Assembly: GCA_034435375.1 (NCBI GenBank)
Contig: DAOTXR010000048.1
Span: 272,984 to 336,983 of the forward strand
From: Anaerolineae bacterium
GTDB lineage: Bacteria; Chloroflexota; Anaerolineae; Aggregatilineales; UBA3940
Reading direction: 5' to 3'
DNA length: 64,000 bases
Made by a program: the position numbers and the translations under genes. Shown one piece after another: positions 19,597 to 53,942 of this stretch. Every line of letters starts with the position of its first letter. The stretch's first letter is position 1. The notes under the pieces were generated by a model. That model had not been told where the DNA came from. It searched no databases and saw nothing but the letters and a program-made list of their open reading frames with translations.

Positions 19597-22509
19597 CTAT
19601 TGCTCATCTCTTACCAGCCGGAACCCGATCAGTTGAACCCTCGCTTGCGGTTCACCTGGGCGGCGCTGCGTGCAGTGGATGTTCTGCCGCAAGCTGTCGT
19701 AGGCTCCACCTCGCAGGACACGCGGCCCGGGAGCAGTCAGGTCCTCACGTCCATCCTCAGACTGATAAGGGTAGCCCAGCATCAGGCTACTACACCACTC
19801 CCACACATTGCCGGCCATGTCGTAGATGCCTTCGGGGGTTTTGTCATGTGGAAAGATGCCAACCGCTGTTGTCTGCCCAACGCCGGCTTCACGGGCATTG
19901 GCGACATCGTCGCTGGCCCGACTTCCAAAGGGATATCTTCGATGCTCCAGACCGGCTGCTGCTCGTTCCCACTCTGCCTCGGTCGGCAGGCGGTAGGGTC
20001 TGCCGGTCTTTTTCTTTAGCCAGTTTGCGTAGGCCACCGCTTCATACCAGGTGACTCCCACTACGGGCCGGTTAGCAGTTCCCCATACAGGATCGTAGGC
20101 GTAGCCGCCCGGTTCACCAGCACGTTTACGCCACTCCCACCCTGCGCTCGTCCAATATTCTGATCGACGGTACCCACCGTCCTCAATAAAGGCGCGGAAC
20201 TGAGCGTTGGTCACCGGGAAGCGGGCCATCTGAAAGGGCTTGAGCGACACAGGGCACCGCTCTCCCTCATCGCCTATCTCGTAAGGTCCTCCTGAGATGG
20301 GCACCATCTCCGGTTCCAAGGAGCACACGCCAGGGCGAGGATCGCCCAGCCAGCCGAGCACGTCAGCGGCCTGGGCTCGCTCGATGGGCGTCAGATGCCC
20401 GCCTGTGACCAGAGCAACCAGTTGGTTGATGACCTGCAGCACAATGCGCTTGCCGACATATTCATCCTGCTCGGCTGCCGGACGACCTACAATAGCTAAC
20501 ATCTCTGCTGCCCACCACACCAAACGCCACCCGGCAGAGTCAGAGGGTGGAGCAGGAGGACACAACAGGCTAATGGCATCTAGAGGAATGTGGACGTTCT
20601 GTTGGTTGTAAACTAGGTGGCCCACTGCCAACAACAGCACTTCGTGCCAGATGTCGCCCTGGGTCGCCAGCCGGGCCACCCGACGCGCAAAGTCCCTGTC
20701 GGTGACCAAGTGCCGTCCGGCCAGAAACTCTTGGAACCCTCGGTGCAAGAAGGCGTAAGTCTGCTCACCCCGGCCATCCCTTCCACGGCTGACCAGCAAC
20801 CCGGCCTGTGCCTCGATGTACTCGCAGAACTTCTGCGCTTTGCCCCAATCGCCATCCAGGTAGATTTGTAGAATGCGCAGCACGTCGGCCTGAGGGATAT
20901 TGGCTGCCAGAGCTTGTTGGTCTTGTGTGCTGTGGGCGTGGAAAGCCACCTCGCACAGCCCATTGACCAGCCGCTCCTCGCGAGTCTGAAGCTGATCAAG
21001 GATACCTGGTTCCCATCCACCTGTGGCGAGCCGCTTAGTGCGCTGCCATTCCCACAGCAGCAGTTTCACACAGTCGTCGTACAGGCGGGCGCGCTCGCGC
21101 GGCAGTGTACCTTTGTAGGTGTGCACGAGGGCCATTACAGTCAGCAGCATGGGGTTCTGGGCCAGGTCGTGCAGGTGACGGGTAGCGTTACGCAGTTCCT
21201 CGGCCTTGACCTTTGCAAGACGTTCGCTCAAGTATCCTAGGCGAGCCAGATTGTTGTACCAGTGCTCGACGAATGTGTCGATGCTCTGCTGGCTCAGCGG
21301 CGCCAGTGTGACCGCTGGGAAGCTGGTCAACTGCCAGGCTGGATCGGTGTAAGACAGCACGCGGCAGGCGACAATGAACTGACTGCGTGGATAGCGGTCG
21401 GCAAAGTCAGTCACCGCATCCCGCACGATCTGGCGCAGCGGCGCCACCGTGATCTCATCTAGACCGTCAAAAAGCACCAGGCATAATCCGCGGTTGAGCA
21501 GGTCCAGGATACGACCGGCAAAGTCGCCCAGGTTGCGCTCAGCTAGCTGAGTTGTGATGTGAGACCAAACCATCGAGGCCGTACCACGCCGGGCATCTGG
21601 CGGGATGCTGCGCACAAAGTCGCGCAGATCGATCCTCACCGGCAGGAGCACCTCCCGCTTCCAGGTCACTGCCTTACGACGCCCCTGGCGGGGAACGGTG
21701 AGGCGCTCCAGATAGCCCCGCTTAGGGTATAGGCGTGCCCCGGCCAGACACAGTGTCAGAAAGTTGAGGAAGGTGGTCTTCCCTGATCCTGGATCACCGA
21801 GGATCACCAGCCGGCGATTGCGCAGGACGGCATCCAGGGCCGGCACCGGGACGCGGTCATCGAAGCCGTCTCGCTGTCGCAGTGCAGCCTGGGTTCGCAT
21901 AATGTCCAGCGGGACGTAAATTGTGTCGAGCCGGACATCCAGCGCCGAACGATCAGGCGAAGCCATATCCAGATTCAGCTCACCTAGCGGGATGCGATTA
22001 GCCACAGTGATCAGCCACCACAGGTATTCACGTTCCACATCGCTGATGGGGGCATCTTCTGACGGAGTCTGTTTGCCATAGACCAAAGTGTCGACGTGGC
22101 CGATCACCACCTCTCCCCTGAGAATGTCACGCGCGGCCGCCCCGCCGTGGATGACCGATGTGCCTTCGCCGACCACTGCGCCGGGCATCACATCGCCCGT
22201 TGTGTTCGAGTCGCGGCCCGTGACAGGCATCGGAGACGCATCAGGGTGAGGCAAGCGCGGGGGGGCCGAGGGTGCTCTGTCAACCACGTCACGCAATTCG
22301 TCGGCGATGACCATCCGCATCTGATCGATCAGCCGGGAGAGACGATCGTTTTGGTCAGCGCCCTTACCAGCAGCAAGCAGCGCCTCCAGCTCCTTGAGCA
22401 TCTCGCGCAGACGTTCCCGCTCGGAATGGCTCAGGTGTGGTGGATCGAGTGGCTGACCGTCGGAAGGTTGCATTGAGGACGGCCTCCGAACAACAGGCAA
22501 GTTAGACAT
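19597..22509 (-). CDS. STAND NTPase, NACHT-type, with C-terminal FGE-sulfatase (SUMF1) fold domain
   Basis: Pre-NACHT motif EREYLWWLITVANRIPLGELNL...LDTIYVPLDI. Walker A LVILGDPGSGKTTFL (about 21770-21800). Walker B CLVLFDGLDEI. FGE domain (about 19600-20307): RFPVTNAQFRAFIEDGGY, RPVVGVTWYEAVAYANWL, YRLPTEAEWERAAAG, GNVWEWCSS, RVLRGGAY, IGFRLV. The N-terminal ~150 aa is coiled-coil plus a Gly/Val-rich segment with no recognisable enzyme domain. Confidence 0.92.
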   Translation of the reverse strand: MSNLPVVRRPSSMQPSDGQPLDPPHLSHSERERLREMLKELEALLAAGKGADQNDRLSRLIDQMRMVIADELRDVVDRAPSAPPRLPHPDASPMPVTGRDSNTTGDVMPGAVVGEGTSVIHGGAAARDILRGEVVIGHVDTLVYGKQTPSEDAPISDVEREYLWWLITVANRIPLGELNLDMASPDRSALDVRLDTIYVPLDIMRTQAALRQRDGFDDRVPVPALDAVLRNRRLVILGDPGSGKTTFLNFLTLCLAGARLYPKRGYLERLTVPRQGRRKAVTWKREVLLPVRIDLRDFVRSIPPDARRGTASMVWSHITTQLAERNLGDFAGRILDLLNRGLCLVLFDGLDEITVAPLRQIVRDAVTDFADRYPRSQFIVACRVLSYTDPAWQLTSFPAVTLAPLSQQSIDTFVEHWYNNLARLGYLSERLAKVKAEELRNATRHLHDLAQNPMLLTVMALVHTYKGTLPRERARLYDDCVKLLLWEWQRTKRLATGGWEPGILDQLQTREERLVNGLCEVAFHAHSTQDQQALAANIPQADVLRILQIYLDGDWGKAQKFCEYIEAQAGLLVSRGRDGRGEQTYAFLHRGFQEFLAGRHLVTDRDFARRVARLATQGDIWHEVLLLAVGHLVYNQQNVHIPLDAISLLCPPAPPSDSAGWRLVWWAAEMLAIVGRPAAEQDEYVGKRIVLQVINQLVALVTGGHLTPIERAQAADVLGWLGDPRPGVCSLEPEMVPISGGPYEIGDEGERCPVSLKPFQMARFPVTNAQFRAFIEDGGYRRSEYWTSAGWEWRKRAGEPGGYAYDPVWGTANRPVVGVTWYEAVAYANWLKKKTGRPYRLPTEAEWERAAAGLEHRRYPFGSRASDDVANAREAGVGQTTAVGIFPHDKTPEGIYDMAGNVWEWCSSLMLGYPYQSEDGREDLTAPGPRVLRGGAYDSLRQNIHCTQRRPGEPQARVQLIGFRLVRDEQ

Positions 22510-22584: not shown

Positions 22585-23088
22585 ATGTCAGACAAACCTG
22601 ATCCTAATCCAAATGACGAAAAAGAGGAAGTCGAAGAGAAGGGCTATGCCGTTGGTGGAGATCATATTGTGGTGCAGGGAGATGTAGGTGTAGGAGCCAG
22701 CATTGGACGGGGCTATGTTCAGGCAGATTACATCGCAGGGCGCGATTTGATCATTGCTACGGATGAAGTCCCGAAGGCCGACGACAAGAAGCAGTTTGCT
22801 GACCTCATGATCAAGCTGCGCGATCTGATCATCAAGGCTCACCAAGCCGGTGAACTCAGTGAACGCACTGCCAAAAAAGCGTTAGGGCATCTGGCTACGA
22901 CAGCCGAGCTGGTTGCAAAAGAAGAAAAGCCACCCAAAAACCAGATCTTGAGCCGGCTTCAGTACGTAGCCGACGTGCTCGATGCCGCGGTGGACTACTT
23001 GAGCACGAGCGGCGGCGCTGCCCGGGTGGTACTCCAGGCGCTGCCTATCGCGACACTGTTGATCAAGATCGCCAGCCGCTTATTCTGA
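22585..23088 (+). CDS. Hypothetical 167-aa protein between the two STAND genes (acidic N-terminus, short Gly/Val-rich beta-like segment, helical C-terminal half with hydrophobic tail)
   Basis: ATG 22585 lies 6 nt after AAGGAG (22573-22578). Visibly more AT-rich than its neighbours. Sequence MSDKPDPNPNDEKEEVEEKGYAVGGDHIVVQGDVGVGASIGRGYVQADYIAGRDLII...VVLQALPIATLLIKIASRLF. No family recognised. The stop overlaps the 3' end of the convergent gene by 9 nt. Confidence 0.6.
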   Translation: MSDKPDPNPNDEKEEVEEKGYAVGGDHIVVQGDVGVGASIGRGYVQADYIAGRDLIIATDEVPKADDKKQFADLMIKLRDLIIKAHQAGELSERTAKKALGHLATTAELVAKEEKPPKNQILSRLQYVADVLDAAVDYLSTSGGAARVVLQALPIATLLIKIASRLF

Positions 23089-26000
23089 TTCGGCGCGTGC
23101 TGGCAAACGAGGGATAGCAGGCCGCGCACGCTCAACGATCCAGTTCAGCGCCCACAGCAGTTCATCCTGAGCGCGGCTCTCGGCCTCCCACGAGGCATGG
23201 GGCGTAAGCTCCACCAGTGCGTCGGCTACGTCGCGTGCCACAGCTAGCATGTCCTCGCCGCTCAGGGGGGGATCGGGCAGGTTGCGGATCAGATGGCCCA
23301 GCGTAATGGCAGCCGCGCGGCGTACCTCTCCCGTCCCATTCTTGAGGTGCTCCCGTAGAATATGTAGCGTGTTCGACCCGACCGTGCGGGCATGGGCCAG
23401 GCTACGCAGGGCGGCTGCACGCACATGCGGGCTTTCGGCGGGGTTGGTTGCATCAAGCAGAATCTGTAGAACGGCTGAAGTGTTGTCCAGGGCTTGGCCC
23501 AAGACCTCCAGTGCTAGTGCCCGCAAACCAACCGCTGCCCGTCGGGCCTGGCTCGATCCAAACTCGCGCTGTACGGCCAGGTCCATGACGTGGTTGATCA
23601 CTTCTGGCGGGAGTGGTGCATGCGCCTGGAGACAGGCCACTATCTCTCGGCCAGCATTTTCCCAATGGGTGCGCAGCGCTTGCACCAGAACCAGCAACGC
23701 CTGATTGGATAGGCCACGCAACGCAGCCAGCGCCCGGATTGCCTTCAGCCCAATGGGATGGTCGGGCATGGCAGCCAGCGCCATCAGGTAGTCGATGATC
23801 TCAGGACCAGGATCCTTAAGGTGCCGGATTGTCTCCAGCGTTGTCTCACGCACGAGCATCTCGCGATCGCTCAGGAGCACATATAGCGCATGGCGAAGAT
23901 CGTCATTCAGTTCCGGGACATGACGGAGCGCCGCTGCCACTGCTCGCCGCACATGATAGATTGGATCGCTGATCATGTGGGCCAGCGCATGTGTTGCTTG
24001 GGCTGATCTCCAACCCTTGCGGGCCAGCGGCTCAACCACCGCTGCCCGAACACTGTCTGCCGGGTCATCCAGCCGCTCCACCAACGCAGCCAGCACCTCT
24101 GGCGTTTCATTGCGGCAGGTGCCCAACGCCATTGCCGCTGCCAGGCGAACACCCACATCCGGATCGTCAGTCCATCGCGCAAGTTGGCTGATAACTCCAG
24201 AAGGCAGCTCAATCGGACGGGCCAGGGCGTTGATTGCCATCACACGCACTGGCGGCTCAGCCTCGGCAATGGCCCGGCAGATTGCTGCCATTGCATCGTC
24301 TGGCAGGTTCGAGACGTTGGCCAGCGTGTCGACTGCCCTCTGCCTGATCACAGGGTCATCATCGTCCAGCAACCGTAGCAACTCACCAACTACCTGGGGC
24401 GGTAGCGACCCAGCCTGTTTGAGCCGCCTCAGGCTCACCCGTCGCCTGACTGGGTCGTCGCTGTGCAGGAAGTCAACCCACATGTTCAGGACCTCGTAAG
24501 GGATCGGCGCTGCAGCTTCGAGCGTCCGCTGGCTGGCTGTGCACACCTGCTCATCGGGATCGGAGGTGAGCATCAATAGCAGTACATAAGCCTCTCGAGA
24601 TAGGCTGCCGACGCGGCCCAAAGCTTCCACGATGGCACGTCGCACCAGCAGCGGAGCTTCACGCCCATGCGCCACCAGTGCATCGCGCCCCTCGACTAAG
24701 TGGGCAGGCCAGAACGTCACAGCATCAGCAGCAAATGCCTGGATGTGCTCGTCCGGTGCGGCGAGGTTGTCGATAGCGATCTGCAACGCGCGATGGCTAG
24801 CCGGTGTGCCATTCAGATTGACCAGGTGACGGCGAGCGCGGTCGTAGATCAGGCTGAACCGTCCCAGACTGTCCCGATCCCCTTCCAGCCACAGCTGCAT
24901 CAGTTGTCTGACGATCTCGCGCGTCAACTCTGCACGCACCTCGACGCCGCTGCCCAGTAGCCGGGCTGCAAAGAACAGATCGCGCTTGAGCAGCGACTCG
25001 AAGGGACTGGAGGCATGTCCAAACTGGGCTGCCCGCTCACCACGGGCGAGGATTGCTGCCTCAACCAACTCGGTCGCGTCATCCACTGATCGAAGTGAAG
25101 TGAAGCCCACAGCCAATGTGATGACCTCATCCCAGCGCGGATCGTGCAGGCGCTCACGGATGCGTTGTGCAGCCAACCGATAGCTGGAGACTAAGTAGCG
25201 TGCCGCGAAGTACTCCTGAAGCCCGTGATAAATGAAGCCATAGCGCTGGGGAGCTAGCTCGATCAACACGCCGGAATGTACGCGCATCCGACCCAGAAAG
25301 TCCCCAATCGCGTCGCTTACCTGCTGTGGCGATGCCTCCGGATGCATCTGGCTCCAGATCCGCCCCAGGATCTCGCGCAGCTCGTGCTCGCGCAGCATTC
25401 CGGTCGGGCGTGAAGCCTGCATCCAGAAGGCTAGCTCAGCAAGCAGAGGAGTCGCCTCCTGCTCCAGCACCGACGGCGGACTGGTGGAACCTTGGGGCAG
25501 CCGCCACTCGCGGATCAGGGCCTCAGCTACCGTCTGGTAGATGGCCACCTGTTGGGGGACAAGTACCATCCCCGGATGGAATACGCCCACCAGCATCCGC
25601 AAGAGCAGAGGATTGCTGCCCAGCGTGTACAGACGTGGATTGCCTGTGATCTGGCGGGCCAGGGCTAGCGTATCCGAGTGGGCTTGACGCAGGACCTCGT
25701 CATCGCCCACCAGGGGGCGCTGGACTCGGGTCAGTGTCAGCTTCCAGCGCAGCAACAGGGAGTTGATCTGGCTACGCTCCAAAGGCTGAATGATATACGC
25801 AGCAAAATCGCGAGGAAGTGGCGTCGTGTGATAGCCTACGAACCGACTGGTGACAACAGTGCGGTTCCCCGTGGCCCGCCAGCCCATCGACGCCTCAGTG
25901 ATGCTGGCCACCAACATTCGCCGTTGGTCGTCACTGGCTGCCTGGTCGAGGCCATCCAGCAGTAGGAGGCACTGTCCATTTTCGATCAGCGCCGCAAGCA

Positions 26001-27156
26001 GCGATCCAACCCCCTCGTCGCCGGTAAGCTCAATGGCAGTCCGCAGCATGAAATCTTCAAGCGTCTCGTCGGCATGATGATCCTCAACAAAGTCAGCCAG
26101 GTCGATATAGATCGGAAGGGGACGAGTCAGCCTAAAGTTGCGGGCGGTGCCCTCTCCGCCTTCAGGCGATGGACTGCCAGGCTGAGATTCCAACAGGATG
26201 CGGGCATGCTCAAAGACGAGATGGCGCAGCAACGTAGTCTTGCCTGCCCCACTGTCACCCAGGATAAGCACCTGGGGGTGATGGGTAAGCACCTCGTTTA
26301 CCATCTCGCCAGTACAGTTTTCCAGCTCGCGGTAGCCCAATGGCTCGCGAAAGGTTCTCAACTCTGAGTCTTCATGCCCAGCAAGCTGATACCGCATGTA
26401 ATAGACGGGCTTATCATAGGCCGAGAGTGGTACCAGGCGTAGAGGGATATATACGTCGCTTAAGGGAACCGTAGTGTGAACGCTGCGCGGGTACCCGCGC
26501 GGGTCAATGTGACCGATCCGCTCGCTGCATGCCGTGAGGTAAGCTGTAAGTGTGGCCTCGTTGAAGTGTCCACTGTGCAGAGCCGCCAGGTTTATCCCCG
26601 CTGGGCGTGCGGAGGCTGGTTCTCTTACAGGCAGGGCTTCGAGCAAATGCAGGATCTCTTCACAGACAAACAAATCTTCGAAGACAGGAGTCTGATCGAT
26701 CAGGCATTGCTCCACGATGTCCATGAAGGTCTGCATGGGGATGATCCAGTCTCCCCACGAGCGTGGCAGAGTTCGTCCTGTCTCGATTGTCACGGAACGT
26801 TGCAGCTCAGGATATATATCCCACAGCGCATCCGCTGCGCCCTGGAACCCGAAAAGGAAAGCTTGCCATAGACCTTCGGTGAAGGGGCGTTGTGCTGAGC
26901 CACTGTAACGCAGTAGATCGGCAAAGTGCTCCAGCCAACGTTCGTGCGTGGCTGCATAGCTGCGGAACTCATCCTGAGCTTGATCAAAGGCAGCTGGCAG
27001 ATCGCTGTTTTCAAGTGAGTCCTGAAGCCAATGCTCGACTATCACATAGGCCGTTGAATCCAGAGCATCTCCGTAGTCACGGGCACGCTCAAATAAGGAT
27101 TCCAACAGCCGTGTCCCAGCCTGACTTAAGGCCGTCGTGATTAGCGAGATGGGCAT
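23080..27156 (-). CDS. STAND NTPase, NACHT-type, with ~230-aa helical N-terminal domain and long C-terminal HEAT-repeat array
   Basis: VPLSDVYIPLRLVPL pre-NACHT motif. Walker A VLILGDSGAGKTTLLRHL. Walker B CLLLLDGLDQA. At least 10 HEAT/PBS-lyase-type repeats (about 23169-24669), e.g. DDPVRRRVSLRRL, DDDPVIRQRAVDTLANV, EPPVRVMAINALAR, DDPDVGVRLAAAMALG, DDPADSVRAAVVEPLAR, DPIYHVRRAVAAALRHV. Confidence 0.92.
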   Translation of the reverse strand: MPISLITTALSQAGTRLLESLFERARDYGDALDSTAYVIVEHWLQDSLENSDLPAAFDQAQDEFRSYAATHERWLEHFADLLRYSGSAQRPFTEGLWQAFLFGFQGAADALWDIYPELQRSVTIETGRTLPRSWGDWIIPMQTFMDIVEQCLIDQTPVFEDLFVCEEILHLLEALPVREPASARPAGINLAALHSGHFNEATLTAYLTACSERIGHIDPRGYPRSVHTTVPLSDVYIPLRLVPLSAYDKPVYYMRYQLAGHEDSELRTFREPLGYRELENCTGEMVNEVLTHHPQVLILGDSGAGKTTLLRHLVFEHARILLESQPGSPSPEGGEGTARNFRLTRPLPIYIDLADFVEDHHADETLEDFMLRTAIELTGDEGVGSLLAALIENGQCLLLLDGLDQAASDDQRRMLVASITEASMGWRATGNRTVVTSRFVGYHTTPLPRDFAAYIIQPLERSQINSLLLRWKLTLTRVQRPLVGDDEVLRQAHSDTLALARQITGNPRLYTLGSNPLLLRMLVGVFHPGMVLVPQQVAIYQTVAEALIREWRLPQGSTSPPSVLEQEATPLLAELAFWMQASRPTGMLREHELREILGRIWSQMHPEASPQQVSDAIGDFLGRMRVHSGVLIELAPQRYGFIYHGLQEYFAARYLVSSYRLAAQRIRERLHDPRWDEVITLAVGFTSLRSVDDATELVEAAILARGERAAQFGHASSPFESLLKRDLFFAARLLGSGVEVRAELTREIVRQLMQLWLEGDRDSLGRFSLIYDRARRHLVNLNGTPASHRALQIAIDNLAAPDEHIQAFAADAVTFWPAHLVEGRDALVAHGREAPLLVRRAIVEALGRVGSLSREAYVLLLMLTSDPDEQVCTASQRTLEAAAPIPYEVLNMWVDFLHSDDPVRRRVSLRRLKQAGSLPPQVVGELLRLLDDDDPVIRQRAVDTLANVSNLPDDAMAAICRAIAEAEPPVRVMAINALARPIELPSGVISQLARWTDDPDVGVRLAAAMALGTCRNETPEVLAALVERLDDPADSVRAAVVEPLARKGWRSAQATHALAHMISDPIYHVRRAVAAALRHVPELNDDLRHALYVLLSDREMLVRETTLETIRHLKDPGPEIIDYLMALAAMPDHPIGLKAIRALAALRGLSNQALLVLVQALRTHWENAGREIVACLQAHAPLPPEVINHVMDLAVQREFGSSQARRAAVGLRALALEVLGQALDNTSAVLQILLDATNPAESPHVRAAALRSLAHARTVGSNTLHILREHLKNGTGEVRRAAAITLGHLIRNLPDPPLSGEDMLAVARDVADALVELTPHASWEAESRAQDELLWALNWIVERARPAIPRLPARAESE

Positions 27157-33979: not shown

Positions 33980-35050
33980 ATGCAGTTTGATGTGGCTATA
34001 GTGGGGTTCGGTCATGTCGGGCGGGCGCTGGCCGAGCTGATCATTGCCAAGACAGATACATTGGCACGTGACTACGGCCTCAACTTGCGGGTCATCGGGA
34101 TCAGCACATCCCACCACGGCCACGTGATAGACACGGGGGGTATCCATCTGCGCACCGCGCTGGATGCTCTACGCTACAATGCCCAGCTTGAGGGCTTGCA
34201 TCACGGCCTGCCAGTACACAGCACGGAGCAGTTCATTGCCGAATGCCCTGCTGACTTGATCTTTGAGTGTATCCCTACCAACCCTTACGATGGTCAGCCT
34301 GCGTTGGGCTTGGCCCATCGTATTCTGGACAAGGGCATGCATCTGGTCACGGCTAATAAAGGTCCGGTGGCGTTTGGCTACCGCGAGCTTAGTGCCCTGG
34401 CCATGCAACGAGGCGTCGGCTTCTTTTGTGAGTCGACGGTGATGGATGGGGCTCCCGTGCTGGGTATCGCGCGTGAAGGACTGCCCGGTGTGCAGGTCAA
34501 CCGTATTCGGGGCATCTTAAACAGCACCACCAACTACATTCTGACGCTTATGGAGCAGAAGGGGCTGAAATTCGACCAAGCTCTCCGATCCGCACAGGCA
34601 ATTGGCATTGCTGAGGCCGATCCATCGCTGGACATTGACGGCTGGGATGCAGCTATCAAGACCATCATCCTGGCCAACATTATGATGGGTTCTGACCTGC
34701 GTCCGCTAGATGTGGATCGTCAGGGCATTCGCGAGGTGACACTGGACGCTGTGCAGGCTGCTGCGGCAGCAGGCCAACGCATCCGGCTGATATGCGAAGC
34801 CGTCCGTGAGGCCGATGGCAGGGTCTCGGCGCGTGTCAGCCCGCAATGGTTATCTATGGGAAATGCGCTGGCAGGCGTCAGCGGGACATCCAGTATCGTC
34901 GAGATCGAGACTGACGTACTGCCCCGTCTTGTGCTGATCGAGCATGATCCCGGTCCTGTTACGACAGCCTACGGGATGCTAGCAGACATGATCAACATCG
35001 TGCGCGGACGCCATTTGGCCGGGTTCGTCCGGCTGCCGGAGGTCTCGTGA
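33980..35050 (+). CDS. hom: Homoserine dehydrogenase (short form, no ACT domain)
   Basis: Rossmann VAIVGFGHVGRALAELI, TANKGPVA, and catalytic-domain pattern ESTVMDGAPV...ILNSTTNYIL...EADPSLDIDGWDAAIK. Confidence 0.85.
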   Translation: MQFDVAIVGFGHVGRALAELIIAKTDTLARDYGLNLRVIGISTSHHGHVIDTGGIHLRTALDALRYNAQLEGLHHGLPVHSTEQFIAECPADLIFECIPTNPYDGQPALGLAHRILDKGMHLVTANKGPVAFGYRELSALAMQRGVGFFCESTVMDGAPVLGIAREGLPGVQVNRIRGILNSTTNYILTLMEQKGLKFDQALRSAQAIGIAEADPSLDIDGWDAAIKTIILANIMMGSDLRPLDVDRQGIREVTLDAVQAAAAAGQRIRLICEAVREADGRVSARVSPQWLSMGNALAGVSGTSSIVEIETDVLPRLVLIEHDPGPVTTAYGMLADMINIVRGRHLAGFVRLPEVS

Positions 35051-48872: not shown

Positions 48873-50006
48873 TTGTATACTTTTCACAGGGGTGTGAGGC
48901 AGGGCCACAGTACTGTGACCACGCCCCTATCGCTTGCGATGACCATGACAGCAGGCTGTGCAGTTTGTGGCCAATCCCCTCCTCTTATGTCCGAGGCGCT
49001 TGGGGTGTGCCCCGAATGCGCTCGCCGCGAGGAAGGCGCACTACGCGCACAAGCAGCTCATGTTCGCTCTCGTCGGCTGTTTGGCCTGCCGGAGGTCCCA
49101 CCTCGTTCCGAGCAGGGCATCCGATGCACATGGTGTGGAAGTGAGTGCCTGATTGGCGAAGGGGAGCGCGGTTTTTGTGGCTTGCGGACGGTCAAGGATG
49201 GCCGGTTGCGCCACATTGCTGGGACGCCACAACGTGGCCTTCTACACTGGTACCGCGATCCACTTCCCACCAACTGCGTTGCTGACTGGGTATGCGCCGG
49301 CCATCGGCAGCACGGAAGGCACAACCTGGCTGTTTTCTATCAGAGTTGCACCCTGGACTGCCTGTATTGCCAGAACTGGCACTACCGGGAAGTGGATGCT
49401 GAGCGCAGCGTTGGAATCGCCGCTGACGAGCTGGCCAGCGCGGCTAACCTCCAGACGTTCTGTGTGTGCTACTTCGGCGGCGATCCGGCCTCGCAGATGG
49501 CCCATGCACTGGTTTCGGCCAAGATGCTGGCAGAACGCGGGGTGGTGGTCTGCTGGGAGACCGCAGGCACCAGCCATCCACGCCTGCTCGATCGGGCCGT
49601 AGAGCTGTCCCTGCACAGCGGGGGCTGCCTCAAGTTCGACCTGAAGGCCTTCACCGAGCCGTTGCATATCGCCTTGACTGGCTTGAGCAACCGCCAGACA
49701 CTGGCCAACTTCACGCGTGCGGCCCGGCGATTTGGCGAACGGTCTGGCTCTCCCCCAATCGTTGCAAGCACGCTGCTGGTGCCTGGCTATGTGGATGCTG
49801 AGGAGGTGAGGCGCATCGCACGCTTCATCGCAGACCAGAACCCAGCGATTCCCTACTCGCTGCTCGGTTTTGCACCCAACTATCTGATGCCCGATCTCCC
49901 TCCTACATCGGTGAGTCACGCCGAAGCCGCCCGGCAAGCTGCCCTTGATGAGGGCTTGCAGAATGTCCATGTCGGCAACCGCCATCTGCTTGGTCGGGAC
50001 TACTGA
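48873..50006 (+). CDS. Radical SAM protein with N-terminal Cys-rich (zinc-ribbon-like) region, PFL-activase/AmmeMemoRadiSam-like family
   Basis: CX3CX2C in AVFYQSCTLDCLYCQNWHYRE. N-terminal CAVCGQ...CPECA and CTWCGSEC...GFCGLR. Start uncertain (TTG 48873 versus ATG 48939). Confidence 0.8.
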   Translation: MYTFHRGVRQGHSTVTTPLSLAMTMTAGCAVCGQSPPLMSEALGVCPECARREEGALRAQAAHVRSRRLFGLPEVPPRSEQGIRCTWCGSECLIGEGERGFCGLRTVKDGRLRHIAGTPQRGLLHWYRDPLPTNCVADWVCAGHRQHGRHNLAVFYQSCTLDCLYCQNWHYREVDAERSVGIAADELASAANLQTFCVCYFGGDPASQMAHALVSAKMLAERGVVVCWETAGTSHPRLLDRAVELSLHSGGCLKFDLKAFTEPLHIALTGLSNRQTLANFTRAARRFGERSGSPPIVASTLLVPGYVDAEEVRRIARFIADQNPAIPYSLLGFAPNYLMPDLPPTSVSHAEAARQAALDEGLQNVHVGNRHLLGRDY

Positions 50007-51058
50007 AGCGTGCAAAGTATCTGGGCAACCTGTGACAACACCTCAATGGCGCGTTCAGCAATGGGGACCGTGGTCGAGCCTAAACCGCAGCTAGGGGTGA
50101 CCAAGCTACAGTGGGCAAACTCCTGGGGGTCGATCTGAATGCCGCGTGCGTGCGCCTTCTCGCTGATCAGCTGGAACCCGGCTTGCAACCGTTCGACAAT
50201 GGCTTCCGGCGATAGACCCAGCAAGGCGTCATTGTTCGGCACAATACCCCATGCTACCACCCCGCCTCGGTCAAGAAAGGCACGCATCTCCGCCGGATAT
50301 AGCGCCAGATGATCGAGAAAGCCAAAGGCATCCAGGCTGAGCACATCGACCCTTGTCTGGAGCAAGACTGACCAGTCCGTGTTAGCACAGCAGTGAACAC
50401 CAGCCTTCGCCCCCTCAGCGTGGATGGCATCAAACACCTCGTTCATCATATCGACGGCCTGCGTCTGCCCCAGGTTGATGAAGGCCGAGCCGAACGATGC
50501 CATGTACGGTTCATCGACGAACAGAATCACGTGAGGGCGCACATCTCGAAGCTGCCTGATCTGCCAGCGGGCATTCATGGCCGAGTTCTTCACCAGAACA
50601 TCAGCCAGCACCTCATGATACAGCACGGCCCGCAGGTCCTGGTCAGTGACTGTCAGCCCAAAACTGATCGGCCCAATGACCTGTCCCTTAATCCAACCGT
50701 TGCCTGCTGGGGGCGTTCGGCGCAGTGTCTCCAGCAGGGCATAAAATCCTGCGGCGTGATCTGGATGTAGCGCAAAGGAGTCCACGTCTTCAGCCAGGTA
50801 TCGCTCGTAGAACGCTTCAACCGCTCCCATCAGATTGCCTGTGGTGTCGAAGATGATCTTCTCTTTGACCTTGTCGACTGTGGCCCCTGGCAGGTGAGGC
50901 CCATATTGGACATAGATACTCTCAAGAAACGTGCGACGTGGGAATTGCGGCCAGGCCGGCACATCGAGTCTGTCGTTCAGCCATTCGCACAGAGCTACAG
51001 GCTCAGTGTGTGGAAAGCTCCCCACGTGTGTGGTCCAGTACCGTGGTGTGAAATCCAT
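50000..51058 (-). CDS. Short 'core' MetE-like zinc methyltransferase (cobalamin-independent methionine synthase catalytic-domain homologue, 352 aa)
   Basis: N-terminal HVGSFPHT (the MetE C-domain begins xxGSFPxT). Zn-ligand contexts GVHCCANTDW and LVTPSCGLG (compare HxC and PDCGL in MetE). No N-terminal folate-binding half. AGGAGA Shine-Dalgarno. Confidence 0.7.
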   Translation of the reverse strand: MDFTPRYWTTHVGSFPHTEPVALCEWLNDRLDVPAWPQFPRRTFLESIYVQYGPHLPGATVDKVKEKIIFDTTGNLMGAVEAFYERYLAEDVDSFALHPDHAAGFYALLETLRRTPPAGNGWIKGQVIGPISFGLTVTDQDLRAVLYHEVLADVLVKNSAMNARWQIRQLRDVRPHVILFVDEPYMASFGSAFINLGQTQAVDMMNEVFDAIHAEGAKAGVHCCANTDWSVLLQTRVDVLSLDAFGFLDHLALYPAEMRAFLDRGGVVAWGIVPNNDALLGLSPEAIVERLQAGFQLISEKAHARGIQIDPQEFAHCSLVTPSCGLGSTTVPIAERAIEVLSQVAQILCTLQ

Positions 51059-51119
51059 CGGTCTGTCTCCTGAAAGATGGCTTCCTAAGGAACGCTCCCG
51101 TGAGTATTCCTGCCGATTC

Positions 51120-51593
51120 TTATCTCCCGGCTTTCAACGCCGTCAGAGCGAGTTGAACGCCGTCTTCGGGGTTGATCCTGATTCTGGCGTCAACAATCTT
51201 TCCTTGCTCGTCAATCACAAAGTGGCTGCGGATCACTCCCATAGTGGTGCGGCCATACGTCGATTTTTCTCCCCACACGCCGTAGGCTGCGGCAATGGCG
51301 TGATCCTCGTCGACCAGCAGTGTGAATGGCAGATTGTACTTAGCCTTGAACTCCCGATGGCTGGCTTGTCCATCTGGGCTGACGCCAAGCACAATGGCAT
51401 TGTGTTCCTCAATGGCCGGGTAGTTGTCACGGAAGCTACAAGCTTGCTTGGTGCAGCCGGGGGTATCGTCTTTGGGATAAAAGTAGAGCACCACGCGCCT
51501 GCCGCGGAGGCTGCTGAGCTTGATCTTCTCGCCTGCATCGGTGAGTGCCTCAAAGTCGGGGGCAAGATCGCCAATCTTAGGTGAGTCGCTCAT
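51120..51593 (-). CDS. bcp: Peroxiredoxin, Bcp type
   Basis: VVLYFYPKDDTPGCTKQACSFRD with the peroxidatic Cys. Confidence 0.92.
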   Translation of the reverse strand: MSDSPKIGDLAPDFEALTDAGEKIKLSSLRGRRVVLYFYPKDDTPGCTKQACSFRDNYPAIEEHNAIVLGVSPDGQASHREFKAKYNLPFTLLVDEDHAIAAAYGVWGEKSTYGRTTMGVIRSHFVIDEQGKIVDARIRINPEDGVQLALTALKAGR

Positions 51594-51675
51594 GCTGATG
51601 ATTTCTCCTTGGTTCTGTACGATTCGTTAAGGAGACTGTATCGTATTTCACCTAGCCTGTCAGCACTCACATCGC

Positions 51676-53550
51676 TCATCTTTGCTCAGCTCGTACTGCC
51701 TCGATGATCTCGGCGATCAGGTCATAACGGCCAAACTGCGGCATCAGATACAGGCCCGCTACCCCCATCTGCCGAAACTGTCCGGCCAGTTCCTGGGCGA
51801 TCCTGACCCCTTCCTGGGGTGCGCTGTCCCCGGCAGCCTCAATGCGAGATCGAATCGCATCGGGGATCACGATGCCAGGCACCTCATTGTGCAGAAAGGC
51901 CGCGTGCCGTGCGCTGTACAGCGGCAGCAGCCCGACCAGCACTGGTATATCGAGTGGGCCATGGAGCGAAGTGTAACGCTCCATGAACTGCCGGTAGGTA
52001 TCCACTTCAAATATCGGCTGCGTGATCAGATAATCGGCTCCGCTGGTCAGTTTCTTGCGCAGTGTCTTGATCTCGTGTTCTGTGTCGGGTGCAGCGAGGT
52101 TCAATGCGCAGCTCACCAGAAAATTCGTCGGCTGCCCGATGCGGTTGCCCCCCCAATCAAGACCCTGGTTCAGATTCTGTTTGATCAATCGCACTAGCCC
52201 GGAGGGCACGATGTCGTAGTTGTCGGCGGCTTCCGGATAGTCGCCAATGTTGGTCGGGTCGCCCATCACAACGAACAGGTTGCGCACGCCCAGCGCGTGC
52301 GCGGCGAGCAGATCGCCCTGGATGCGCAACAGGTTACGGCCACGTGTGGGGAAGTGCAACACCGTGTCGACGCCAGCCCGGCTTGCCAGCAGATGGCATA
52401 CAGCCCACGGACTCATCCGCATCCGTGCCATAGGGCTGTCAGTTACATCGATCACGTCTGCGCCGGCATCGCGCAACATTTGAGCAGCGTGCAAGATTTT
52501 ATCGGCGACAAGGCCGCGTGGAGGCGAGACCTCAACTGCGACGACGAACTCACGGCGGGACAGCTTCTGAGCCAGCGGGCTGGGCGCAGGAGCAGCGATC
52601 TCCTCCTCAGCCGCCTCGGCGGCATAATCAACCATGTGCAGGGTGCTGGCCCGCGCAGGGTTGTCCAGCGCAACACGCATTGCCGCAGTATGTTCAGGTG
52701 TGGTACCGCAGCACCCGCCGACGATAACTACGCCCTCATTGCGCAGCGCCACAGCATAGTCGGCAAAATAGTCTGGTCCAGAGGTGTACATCACACGCCC
52801 ACCGATATTCTCTGGCCAACCGGCATTGGGAATGGCCGATAGATACACTGGCTGGCCCGCTAGAGCAGATTGCATCTGCTTGACGATGCGCATGATCTGC
52901 GCCGGGCCATTGGAGCAGTTGACGCCGATCACGTCCACTTTCAGATTGGCCAATGCACGCGCCACTTGGGCGGGAGTATCGCCCATCAGGGTACGATCGT
53001 CACGAGTGAAGGTCATCTGGGCAATGATGGGCAGGTCACATACATCGTGTGCAGCCCGCACTGCCTCTCCAATCTCGTGCAGGTCTGAGAAGGTCTCCAG
53101 TATCAACACATCGGCTCCTGCCTCACACAGCACCTCGATCTGCTCGCGGAAGGCTTCGTGAGCTTGCTGGGCAGGAACCCGCCCGATTGGTGCCAGTCGC
53201 ACACCCAAGGGCCCTACCGACGCTGCCACATAGACATTTGGCCTGAAGGCAGCTTCGGCAGCCTGCCGGGCCAGCCGGACGCCTGCCCGGTTGATCTCAG
53301 CCAGACGGCTTTCTAGGCCATGCTCGGCCAGCTTAAAACGGTTGGCGCCAAAGGTGTTTGTCTCGATTACCTCAGCACCTGCTTCCAGATACTGACGGTG
53401 GATCCCAAACACGAGAGCGGGCTTGCTGAGGTTAAGCTCGTCGAAGCAGGCCTCCACCGGCACACCGCTGGCGTGCAGCAGTGTGCCCATAGCCCCATCA
53501 GCTAGAATGACTCCCTGCGCAAGCCGTTCCCGGAAAGGTACAGCGCTCAT
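51676..53550 (-). CDS. Bifunctional homocysteine S-methyltransferase domain + 5,10-methylenetetrahydrofolate reductase (YitJ-like)
   Basis: N-terminal half: ILADGAMGTLL, ETNTFGAN, Zn Cys GVNCSNGP and GGCCGTTPEH. C-terminal half is MetF-like: VVAVEVSPPRG, DVIDVTDSPMARMRMS, TRGRNLL, NLFVVMGDP. Confidence 0.88.
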   Translation of the reverse strand: MSAVPFRERLAQGVILADGAMGTLLHASGVPVEACFDELNLSKPALVFGIHRQYLEAGAEVIETNTFGANRFKLAEHGLESRLAEINRAGVRLARQAAEAAFRPNVYVAASVGPLGVRLAPIGRVPAQQAHEAFREQIEVLCEAGADVLILETFSDLHEIGEAVRAAHDVCDLPIIAQMTFTRDDRTLMGDTPAQVARALANLKVDVIGVNCSNGPAQIMRIVKQMQSALAGQPVYLSAIPNAGWPENIGGRVMYTSGPDYFADYAVALRNEGVVIVGGCCGTTPEHTAAMRVALDNPARASTLHMVDYAAEAAEEEIAAPAPSPLAQKLSRREFVVAVEVSPPRGLVADKILHAAQMLRDAGADVIDVTDSPMARMRMSPWAVCHLLASRAGVDTVLHFPTRGRNLLRIQGDLLAAHALGVRNLFVVMGDPTNIGDYPEAADNYDIVPSGLVRLIKQNLNQGLDWGGNRIGQPTNFLVSCALNLAAPDTEHEIKTLRKKLTSGADYLITQPIFEVDTYRQFMERYTSLHGPLDIPVLVGLLPLYSARHAAFLHNEVPGIVIPDAIRSRIEAAGDSAPQEGVRIAQELAGQFRQMGVAGLYLMPQFGRYDLIAEIIEAVRAEQR

Positions 53551-53831
53551 GACAATTCCCCCTCACCTGAGATTCTGATTGAACGTCTGTCGCTTTGCCT
53601 AGTGAAATGCGAAGAATTTACCGTCCCTGGCAGAGTAGAGCAAGTGGTGTGTCACATCGTCCTCAAGAACTCACAGGGCGCCATGGCCCCCAATGAGGGG
53701 GTAAAGTCTAGGGTGGTGTGCGAGGCGGTGAGATGGGCCATCAGAGCCAGGTGCATTCCAACAGAGTCCTAACCACAGTCCACCACATCCTTCGACAACA
53801 TTCCGTGTAGTAAATGAATCCGTAATTTGGG

Positions 53832-53848
53832 CTGAATCCCGGATTCAG
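53832..53848. promoter_or_regulatory. 17-bp perfect palindrome, possible operator
   Basis: CTGAATCC-C-GGATTCAG. It shares the core TCCCGG with the tandem 12-mers 70 bp downstream. Confidence 0.25.
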
Positions 53849-53918
53849 ATACAATTGCTTCCCAATAATCAGCCGACTCCGGGGAAGACAATGCACAATC
53901 CTCATCTGAACATGAGGG

Positions 53919-53942
53919 CATTCCCGGTTTCATTCCCGGTTT
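53919..53942. repeat. Exact tandem duplication of the 12-mer CATTCCCGGTTT, 35 nt upstream of the aminotransferase start
   Basis: CATTCCCGGTTT at 53919-53930 and again at 53931-53942. Confidence 0.9.

Follow-up and report, generated by a model that had tools for sequence, protein, structure and literature searches.

The stretch of DNA analyzed here, 64,000 nucleotides from an Anaerolineae bacterium (assembly GCA_034435375.1, contig DAOTXR010000048.1, positions 272,984 to 336,983) and called the window below, contains three open reading frames (ORFs) that lie next to one another in the same direction on the minus strand (Table 1). They encode a 624-aa fusion of a homocysteine methyltransferase with MTHFR (YitJ type), a 157-aa Bcp peroxiredoxin, and a 352-aa protein that was assigned to the MesB family of core methionine synthases and is the main subject of this analysis. 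The spacers between the genes are short (82 nt between yitJ and bcp, 61 nt between bcp and mesB), and AG-rich, Shine-Dalgarno-like stretches can be read 5' of all three ATGs (GGTGAGGGGG, AAGGAG, and AGGAG). A promoter and terminator scan, in which match totals equaled the chance expectation, placed no terminator-like site in either spacer, the sole minus-strand match falling inside bcp, and the spacers and the yitJ leader fold no better than shuffled sequence (leader z-score +0.44). The ORF list, spacer lengths, scan, and folding thus agree with a first, sequence-only reading of the locus, which had described three co-directional minus-strand genes at these positions with short spacers, Shine-Dalgarno sites, and no terminator hairpins between them. 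One transcript across yitJ, bcp, and mesB is plausible; a weak promoter-like match within the yitJ–bcp spacer may speak against it. At the other end of the cluster, the 3' ends of the mesB ORF and of a convergent radical-SAM ORF overlap by 7 nt (window 50000–50006), which leaves no space for an intergenic terminator on either strand. No Rfam family matched anywhere in the window at gathering thresholds, S-adenosylmethionine (SAM) and B12 riboswitches included, and a search of the leader at E ≤ 1 returned nothing but one chance snoRNA match.

Table 1. Features of the window; columns give the feature, its position in the window, the strand, and the basis of the assignment or a remark.
yitJ-like gene, 624-aa MetH-type homocysteine-binding zinc methyltransferase/MTHFR fusion	51676..53550	(-)	Pfam, NCBIfam
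bcp/prxQ, 157-aa thioredoxin-dependent thiol peroxidase	51120..51593	(-)	Pfam, NCBIfam PRK09437
mesB, predicted 352-aa MesB-family (core-MetE) zinc-dependent homocysteine methyltransferase	50000..51058	(-)	BLASTP, phmmer, profile, fold
mesB S14 codon	51017..51019	(-)	MetE S433; predicted homocysteine carboxylate binding
mesB D182 codon, in VDEP	50513..50515	(-)	MetE D599; predicted homocysteine amino group binding
mesB H222-C223-C224 codons	50387..50395	(-)	H222 = MetE H641, C224 = MetE C643; predicted zinc ligands
mesB D243 codon	50330..50332	(-)	MetE E665; predicted third zinc ligand (Asp as in characterized MesB)
mesB C324 codon, in PSCGLG	50087..50089	(-)	MetE C726; predicted fourth zinc ligand
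yitJ 5' leader/divergent intergenic region	53551..53940	(-)	no riboswitch found
CooC-like P-loop ATPase A, 267 aa, CxC C124-I-C126	47138..47941	(+)	Pfam CbiA
CooC-like P-loop ATPase B, 262 aa, CxC C119-Y-C121	48080..48868	(+)	Pfam CbiA; convergent with mesB
Radical-SAM protein, PflA/AmmeMemoRadiSam-like	48873..50006	(+)	Pfam Radical_SAM 42 bits
970-aa protein, NACHT NTPase with C-terminal FGE-sulfatase	19597-22509	(-)	
Very long ORFs near the NACHT gene, 1609 aa and 1358 aa	10093-14922, 23080-27156	(-)	
Homoserine dehydrogenase	33980-35050	(+)	about 15 kb from yitJ–bcp–mesB, opposite strand

The 352-aa protein carries the three motifs that had first been taken as hallmarks of the MetE catalytic domain, namely HVGSFP at residues 11–16, VHCC at residues 221–224, and PSCGLG at residues 322–327. 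Its AlphaFold2 model consists of a single domain (pLDDT 83, pTM 0.88), and when this model was compared with the PDB using Foldseek, the top 15 matches were all MetE structures (E 3e-7 to 1e-4, TMq 0.50–0.58). The protein is homologous to the catalytic domain of MetE, forms one TIM barrel, and has no folate-binding half, in line with the initial suggestion that it belongs with the short proteins of the MesA–D type. Sequence databases give no such indication: no Pfam match was obtained even at E ≤ 10, no NCBIfam match was found, and searches of PDB sequences with either the single sequence or the family profile returned nothing at E ≤ 10. The register relative to Escherichia coli MetE was taken from local BLASTP at both ends of the protein (window residues 5–21 with MetE 424–440, and 320–348 with MetE 722–750) and, for H222/C224, D243, and D182, from an hhalign alignment against the single E. 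coli MetE sequence, which is weak (E 0.021) and serves for register only. Zinc is predicted from this register to be bound via H222, C224, D243, and C324, and homocysteine via S14 and D182. These six residues and C223 are invariant in an alignment of 24 family sequences.

Core methionine synthases have been grouped into four families (Price et al., PMC7857596), and MesB, or core-MetE, is represented by cbdbA481/DET0516 of Dehalococcoides mccartyi (Deobald et al. 2020, PMC7005905; Price et al. 2021, PMC7857596). A reference sequence was recovered by searching a metagenome collection with the gene-specific 20-mer of the cbdbA481 cloning primer (supplement of PMC7005905). The ORF found in this way (L087:3349-4380(-)) encodes 343 aa, starts with MTKTDF, has Trp at position 69, and ends with KHGTV; the forward primer matches it exactly and the reverse primer matches 19 of 20 bases at the stop codon. 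This reference is a strain variant of cbdbA481 on metagenome contig L087 and not the DET0516 entry itself. A second primer match, on L086, arose by chance in the gene of an unrelated membrane protein and was discarded, and the cluster names of the 343–345-aa family representatives comprise Methanomassiliicoccales and metagenome-assembled genomes (MAGs), with no Dehalococcoides among them.

Compared with D. mccartyi MesB, the window protein is 37% identical over 330 residues by BLASTP (239 bits, E 4e-81) and scores 246 bits by phmmer, 73 bits above the MesB cutoff of 173 bits that was set against DET0516 (a looser cutoff of 130 bits was also used; Price et al., PMC7857596). All 282 full-length family proteins that were retrieved also score above 173 bits by phmmer, and the family profile gives 326 bits for D. 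mccartyi MesB versus 0.2 bits for E. coli MetE. Characterized MesB has Asp in place of MetE Glu-665, giving the zinc ligand signature HCDC, and Trp-69 is also mentioned for it (Price et al., PMC7857596). Family members are expected to have HCDC or HCEC as zinc ligands. The window protein shows the HCDC ligands, has S14 and D182 as the equivalents of Ser-433 and Asp-599, and forms a single barrel within the range of 340–390 aa. Since it agrees with MesB in every feature that can be tested, the idea of a new variant is unsupported, and the 352-aa protein is best classified, on sequence criteria, as an ordinary new member of the known MesB family and not as a new kind of enzyme. As telling against its own proposal, the sequence-only reading had named clustering within an already characterized family whose partner is encoded elsewhere in the genome; the MesB score and the HCDC signature bear out the first half of this, and the second half, a partner gene elsewhere in the genome, is considered likely. 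As a control, characterized D. mccartyi MesB was itself searched and gave zero Pfam matches; therefore, the lack of annotation reflects a database blind spot and not novelty.

Other assignments for the protein were considered at this point. Canonical MetE is ruled out by the length of 352 aa, by the lack of a Pfam match at E ≤ 10, and by the profile score of 0.2 bits. For the MesD/MesX system, with MesD of the ACIAD3523 type, no DUF1852 protein occurs among the window ORFs that were scanned, and no match was obtained at E ≤ 10 from the PDB, which contains the MesD structure 3RPD (cited in Price et al., PMC7857596). A Phaeocystis "MetE-fusion" was set aside as irrelevant, having a PKS/PP-binding/CzcO architecture and not that of a homocysteine methyltransferase/MTHFR fusion. 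MesB-like proteins of the Chloroflexales that are non-catalytic carry FSHG, YCDQ, or YREQ in place of HCDC (Price et al., PMC7857596). A protein of that type, or one from another UROD/MetE branch such as the MtaA-type methylcobamide:coenzyme M methyltransferases, would fit a host related to Chloroflexota, the lack of Pfam and NCBIfam matches, and the presence of the Methanosarcina mazei methyltransferase 4ay8 among the Foldseek matches. However, HCDC is present in the window protein and in all 24 aligned relatives, which refutes a non-catalytic protein of the Chloroflexales type, and the MetE structures outrank 4ay8 by a wide margin (E about 1e-7 versus 7e-4). This explanation carries next to no probability.

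To place mesB in its genomic context, the ORFs within 6 kb of the family gene were clustered in 82 loci (numbered with the prefix L), after which recurrent clusters were annotated, and the range was extended to 10 kb by tblastn in 81 non-redundant related loci. The commonest neighbors within 6 kb were CooC-like ATPases (17 loci), carbon monoxide dehydrogenase (CODH; 11), acetyl-CoA synthase (ACS; 11), and MtnA (11), with S-methyl_trans proteins (7), AcsD (6), and PanB (6) found less often. Genes for CODH/ACS or for the corrinoid iron–sulfur protein (CoFeSP) could be found within 10 kb in 19 of the 81 loci, 14 of which contained acsC or acsD. Of the 16 loci that encode a protein at least 55% identical to the window protein and have 5 kb or more of sequence to each side, 11 had a Wood–Ljungdahl-related gene within 6 kb. 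Members of the family that are 59–64% identical to the window protein directly adjoin CODH/ACS/acsCD, and six close Anaerolineae relatives share the order mesB–HMA–CODH–ACS–CBS–acsD–acsC, with RACo also present in L004. A link between MesB and CoFeSP was proposed by Price et al. (PMC7857596), and the present survey gives that prediction independent support across multiple phyla. By this comparison, methylated CoFeSP (AcsC/AcsD) of the Wood–Ljungdahl pathway would most likely be the physiological methyl donor, with its genes lying outside the 64-kb window.

Several further features of these neighborhoods were recorded. A small protein of 130–169 aa with a heavy-metal-associated (HMA) domain, which may be a metallochaperone, always lies between mesB and CODH in the Anaerolineae Wood–Ljungdahl clusters (L004, L007, L008, L016, L025, and L038; L038:8362-8769). 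The AcsB/CdhC gene of L004 (L004:13828-17721(+), 1297 aa) contains an intein with a LAGLIDADG homing endonuclease, and in the sister assembly L005 it is called as two ORFs. Seven Anaerolineales loci (L036, L011, L012, L024, L028, L039, and L040) have, directly upstream of mesB and in the same orientation, a gene for a soluble protein, designated c8 (L036:8657-9925(+)), of about 420 aa; in most cases this gene follows panB. The c8 proteins share 66–73% identity, have no Pfam, NCBIfam, or PDB sequence match, and are absent from the window; c8 could be a functional partner of MesB or a mere syntenic neighbor. A different arrangement can be seen in loci from Omnitrophota and Planctomycetia (L062, L073, L076, and L077), in which mesB is followed by the hydrogenase maturation genes hypF-like, hypD, and hypE-like and by a gene for a 4Fe-4S dicluster protein, and not by Wood–Ljungdahl genes.

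Two CooC-like ATPases are encoded on the plus strand of the window, convergent with mesB. They are distinct paralogues (31% identical), and neither reaches the cutoff of a curated model, their assignment to CooC/AcsF coming from context and motif alone. Orthologues of CooC-A (83–86% identical) occur near mesB in L009, L013, L014, L022, and L023, and orthologues of CooC-B (75–79% identical) adjoin mesB in L009, L014, L015, L022, L023, and L024. The pair stays beside mesB even where CODH/ACS is missing within 10 kb, and across the same Anaerolineae genomes the CooC paralogues are more conserved than MesB itself (57–62%). CooC-A is also 48–56% identical to the CooC encoded directly upstream of CODH in L042, L045, and L047, and CooC-B is 37% identical to that in L063; the loci with these relatives upstream of CODH belong to Clostridia and LCP-89. 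Clusters of acs genes normally contain cooC and acsF paralogues. The pair in the window probably represents the nickel insertion factors of CODH and ACS, that is, maturation proteins of the Wood–Ljungdahl pathway, and read in this way it provides indirect evidence for Wood–Ljungdahl enzymes encoded elsewhere in the genome. The radical-SAM protein encoded between CooC-B and mesB, for which the public gene call places the start at window position 49005 (333 aa), does not reach any curated cutoff (79 bits for TIGR04337, where 220 is required). Apart from the window, just L015 and L085 have a relative of it near mesB, so no functional tie to MesB can be seen, and it is probably unrelated to MesB function.

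The 624-aa protein was confirmed as the homocysteine-binding zinc methyltransferase/MTHFR fusion that had been described from its sequence. It matches Pfam S-methyl_trans with 249 bits over residues 16–294 and Pfam MTHFR with 113 bits over residues 328–617, scores 678 bits against NCBIfam PRK08645 (bifunctional homocysteine S-methyltransferase/MTHFR; cutoff 453), and retains the MetH-type zinc cysteines C212, C280, and C281. Linkage of mesB to a yitJ-type gene is recurrent and is found in a minority of loci. In L030–L032 the order is mesB–metH–yitJ (L030:10503-15894(+)), the metH being a full-length, cobalamin-dependent gene of 1173 aa with all five domains; this clustering with metH and yitJ indicates that methionine synthesis does not always depend on MesB alone. 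Stand-alone S-methyl_trans proteins of 286–290 aa are also encoded near mesB in L040, L047, and L061, and metG lies near mesB in L034.

The identification of the 157-aa protein as a Bcp peroxiredoxin likewise stands: it scores 146 bits against Pfam AhpC-TSA and 142.5 bits against NCBIfam PRK09437 (cutoff 140), and it contains the motif PGC47-x4-C52, with C47 as the peroxidatic and C52 as the resolving cysteine. It had further been suggested that this enzyme might shield oxidation-sensitive zinc–thiolate sites. A bcp gene adjoins mesB in none of the 81 other loci and only in the window's own lineage, and comparative support for a protective role is therefore lacking. The bcp gene is a local, lineage-specific insertion between yitJ and mesB of an unrelated, ordinary thiol peroxidase.

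Taken together with the genes of the cluster, the MesB assignment suggests a route to methionine in which the MTHFR domain of YitJ would make 5-methyltetrahydrofolate and AcsE would hand its methyl group to CoFeSP (AcsC/AcsD). MesB would then move the methyl group from methyl-Co(III) to a zinc-activated homocysteine thiolate, using methyl-corrinoid and not methyl-folate, and the N terminus of YitJ would constitute a second homocysteine methyltransferase domain, of the MetH type. The reading of the 352-aa protein as a core methionine synthase of the MesB family that has a methyl-corrinoid donor, most likely CoFeSP encoded outside the window, is given a probability of roughly 0.78. A number of points weigh against this reading. 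Searches of the 64-kb window by tblastn with AcsC, AcsD, ACS, CODH, and MetH and by Pfam scans of 27 ORFs, which took in every larger ORF but those of 1609 and 1358 aa, yielded no gene for a corrinoid protein, a B12-binding protein, DUF1852, AcsE, or CODH/ACS, in agreement with the earlier statement that corrinoid, B12-binding, and DUF1852 genes are missing from it. The loci most like the window (L009, L013, L014, L015, and L022–L024) also have no CODH/ACS within 10 kb. In the literature, the role of CoFeSP as donor to MesB in vivo has been predicted by comparative genomics, and methylcobalamin is the only methyl donor demonstrated for MesB, in vitro only; a search of the available literature turned up nothing on MesB after Price et al. 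2021. Finally, the genome encodes another homocysteine methyltransferase domain in the YitJ N terminus, and some relatives have a full metH beside mesB, so that methionine synthesis does not have to rely mainly or solely on MesB.

The first two of these points bear on the proposal of the sequence-only reading that the protein represents yet another variant, one that differs in its methyl donor or partner. Such a fifth type of core methionine synthase would use neither CoFeSP nor a DUF1852 protein and would perhaps depend on the CooC-like ATPases, the radical-SAM protein, or YitJ. It would be consistent with a window that has no corrinoid or DUF1852 gene, with the synteny of mesB and the CooC pair kept in at least seven Anaerolineae loci lacking CODH/ACS within 10 kb, with the stronger conservation of the CooC paralogues there (75–86%, against 57–62% for MesB), and with yitJ or other S-methyl_trans genes near mesB in six other loci. 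However, the 73-bit margin over the MesB cutoff and the HCDC signature place the protein within MesB, and relatives 59–64% identical to it directly adjoin CODH/ACS/acsCD. Elsewhere, genes for these types of CooC are found directly upstream of CODH, in keeping with their known function, and relatives of the radical-SAM protein recur in only two other loci, so that the suggested CooC/radical-SAM module finds no support as a partner. Absence from a 64-kb window also says little about a genome of several Mb, and a fifth variant is considered quite improbable. A narrower version, in which only the lineages with the CooC pair (the window, L009, L013–L015, and L022–L024) lack CoFeSP and MesB takes methyl groups from another donor that is fed by YitJ, with the CooC-like proteins acting as metallochaperones for MesB, is thought very unlikely, and nothing positive supports a donor other than CoFeSP.

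The last point instead concerns the role of the enzyme in the cell. The protein could be a true MesB-family enzyme and yet not be the methionine synthase of the cell, which would rely on MetH, MetE, or the YitJ N terminus; it would then be a redundant or specialized methyl-corrinoid:thiol methyltransferase that, for example, draws methyl groups off a corrinoid protein, recycles them, or has a different thiol as its substrate. MesB homologues encoded beside other methionine synthases may indeed differ in function (Price et al., PMC7857596), metH lies immediately downstream of mesB in L030–L032, and YitJ supplies a second homocysteine methyltransferase domain within the window operon. On the other hand, the homocysteine-binding Ser and Asp and the four zinc ligands are invariant, the score exceeds the strict threshold by which Price et al. 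separated functional orthologues, and yitJ, metH, mtnA, and metG are methionine-related neighbors. A specialized role of this kind is regarded as unlikely, and a core methionine synthase supplied by CoFeSP is preferred.

Homologues of the 352-aa protein are numerous. More than 5,200 matches, mostly MAG proteins from Chloroflexota/Anaerolineae, were obtained from a database of 5.8 billion proteins, and an exhaustive profile search gave 2,161 clusters at 50% identity. The family could be found in at least 598 GTDB species genomes from Chloroflexota, Clostridia, Elusimicrobiota, Planctomycetota, Omnitrophota, Acidobacteriota, and others, as well as in archaea of the Methanomassiliicoccales. Pfam-A and NCBIfam hold no model that detects MesB, the characterized enzyme included. 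As a result, these >5,000 homologues are mostly named "hypothetical protein" or, inconsistently, "methionine synthase II," the latter being the JGI label on some family matches, and pathway reconstructions for Chloroflexota and many candidate phyla would wrongly report that a methionine synthase is missing. As a discovery the protein itself is minor because the family was already described in 2020–2021. Of the remaining window genes listed in Table 1, homoserine dehydrogenase is probably unlinked to the yitJ–bcp–mesB cluster; homoserine is a precursor of both methionine and threonine.

The genes of the window can be compared with several known systems. The CooC/AcsF nickel insertion ATPases share the MinD-type P-loop and the CxC motif with both window paralogues, and acs operons also carry two such paralogues, whereas the window holds no CODH or ACS gene. 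YitJ of Bacillus subtilis, a bifunctional homocysteine S-methyltransferase/MTHFR, has the two-domain architecture and the zinc cysteine triad of the 624-aa protein. The B. subtilis gene is a member of the S-box regulon; in contrast, no S-box/SAM riboswitch lies upstream of the window gene, which also differs in having bcp and then mesB downstream. The oxygen-dependent MesD + MesX (DUF1852) system has in common with the window protein a short, folate-independent MetE-like domain, but its context is aerobic, whereas that of the mesB family is one of anaerobic Wood–Ljungdahl genes.

Canonical MetE (E. coli b3829; PDB 1T7L, 1XDJ, and 4ZTX) shares the barrel fold and has the zinc and homocysteine ligands in the same order and with similar spacing. 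It is, however, a protein of about 750 aa with tandem Meth_synt_1 and Meth_synt_2 (PF01717) domains, whereas the 352-aa window protein has no PF01717 match, carries Asp in place of Glu-665, and shows insignificant sequence similarity to MetE (0.2 bits; hhalign E 0.021). The closest likeness is to D. mccartyi MesB, although the two differ in several respects. The host of the window is an Anaerolineae-type Chloroflexota MAG and that of the characterized enzyme belongs to the Dehalococcoidia; methylcob(III)alamin:homocysteine methyltransferase activity, which makes no use of methyltetrahydrofolate, has been demonstrated for the D. mccartyi enzyme only, the window protein being known from its sequence. 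The window gene follows a yitJ-type MTHFR fusion and bcp, whereas the D. mccartyi core-MetE gene is part of a SAM metabolism operon in an organism that has no MTHFR at all. In common, both proteins are single domains of about 345 aa that escape Pfam, both have HCDC as zinc ligands and Ser and Asp as ligands of homocysteine, and both share the family-level linkage to the CoFeSP of the Wood–Ljungdahl pathway.

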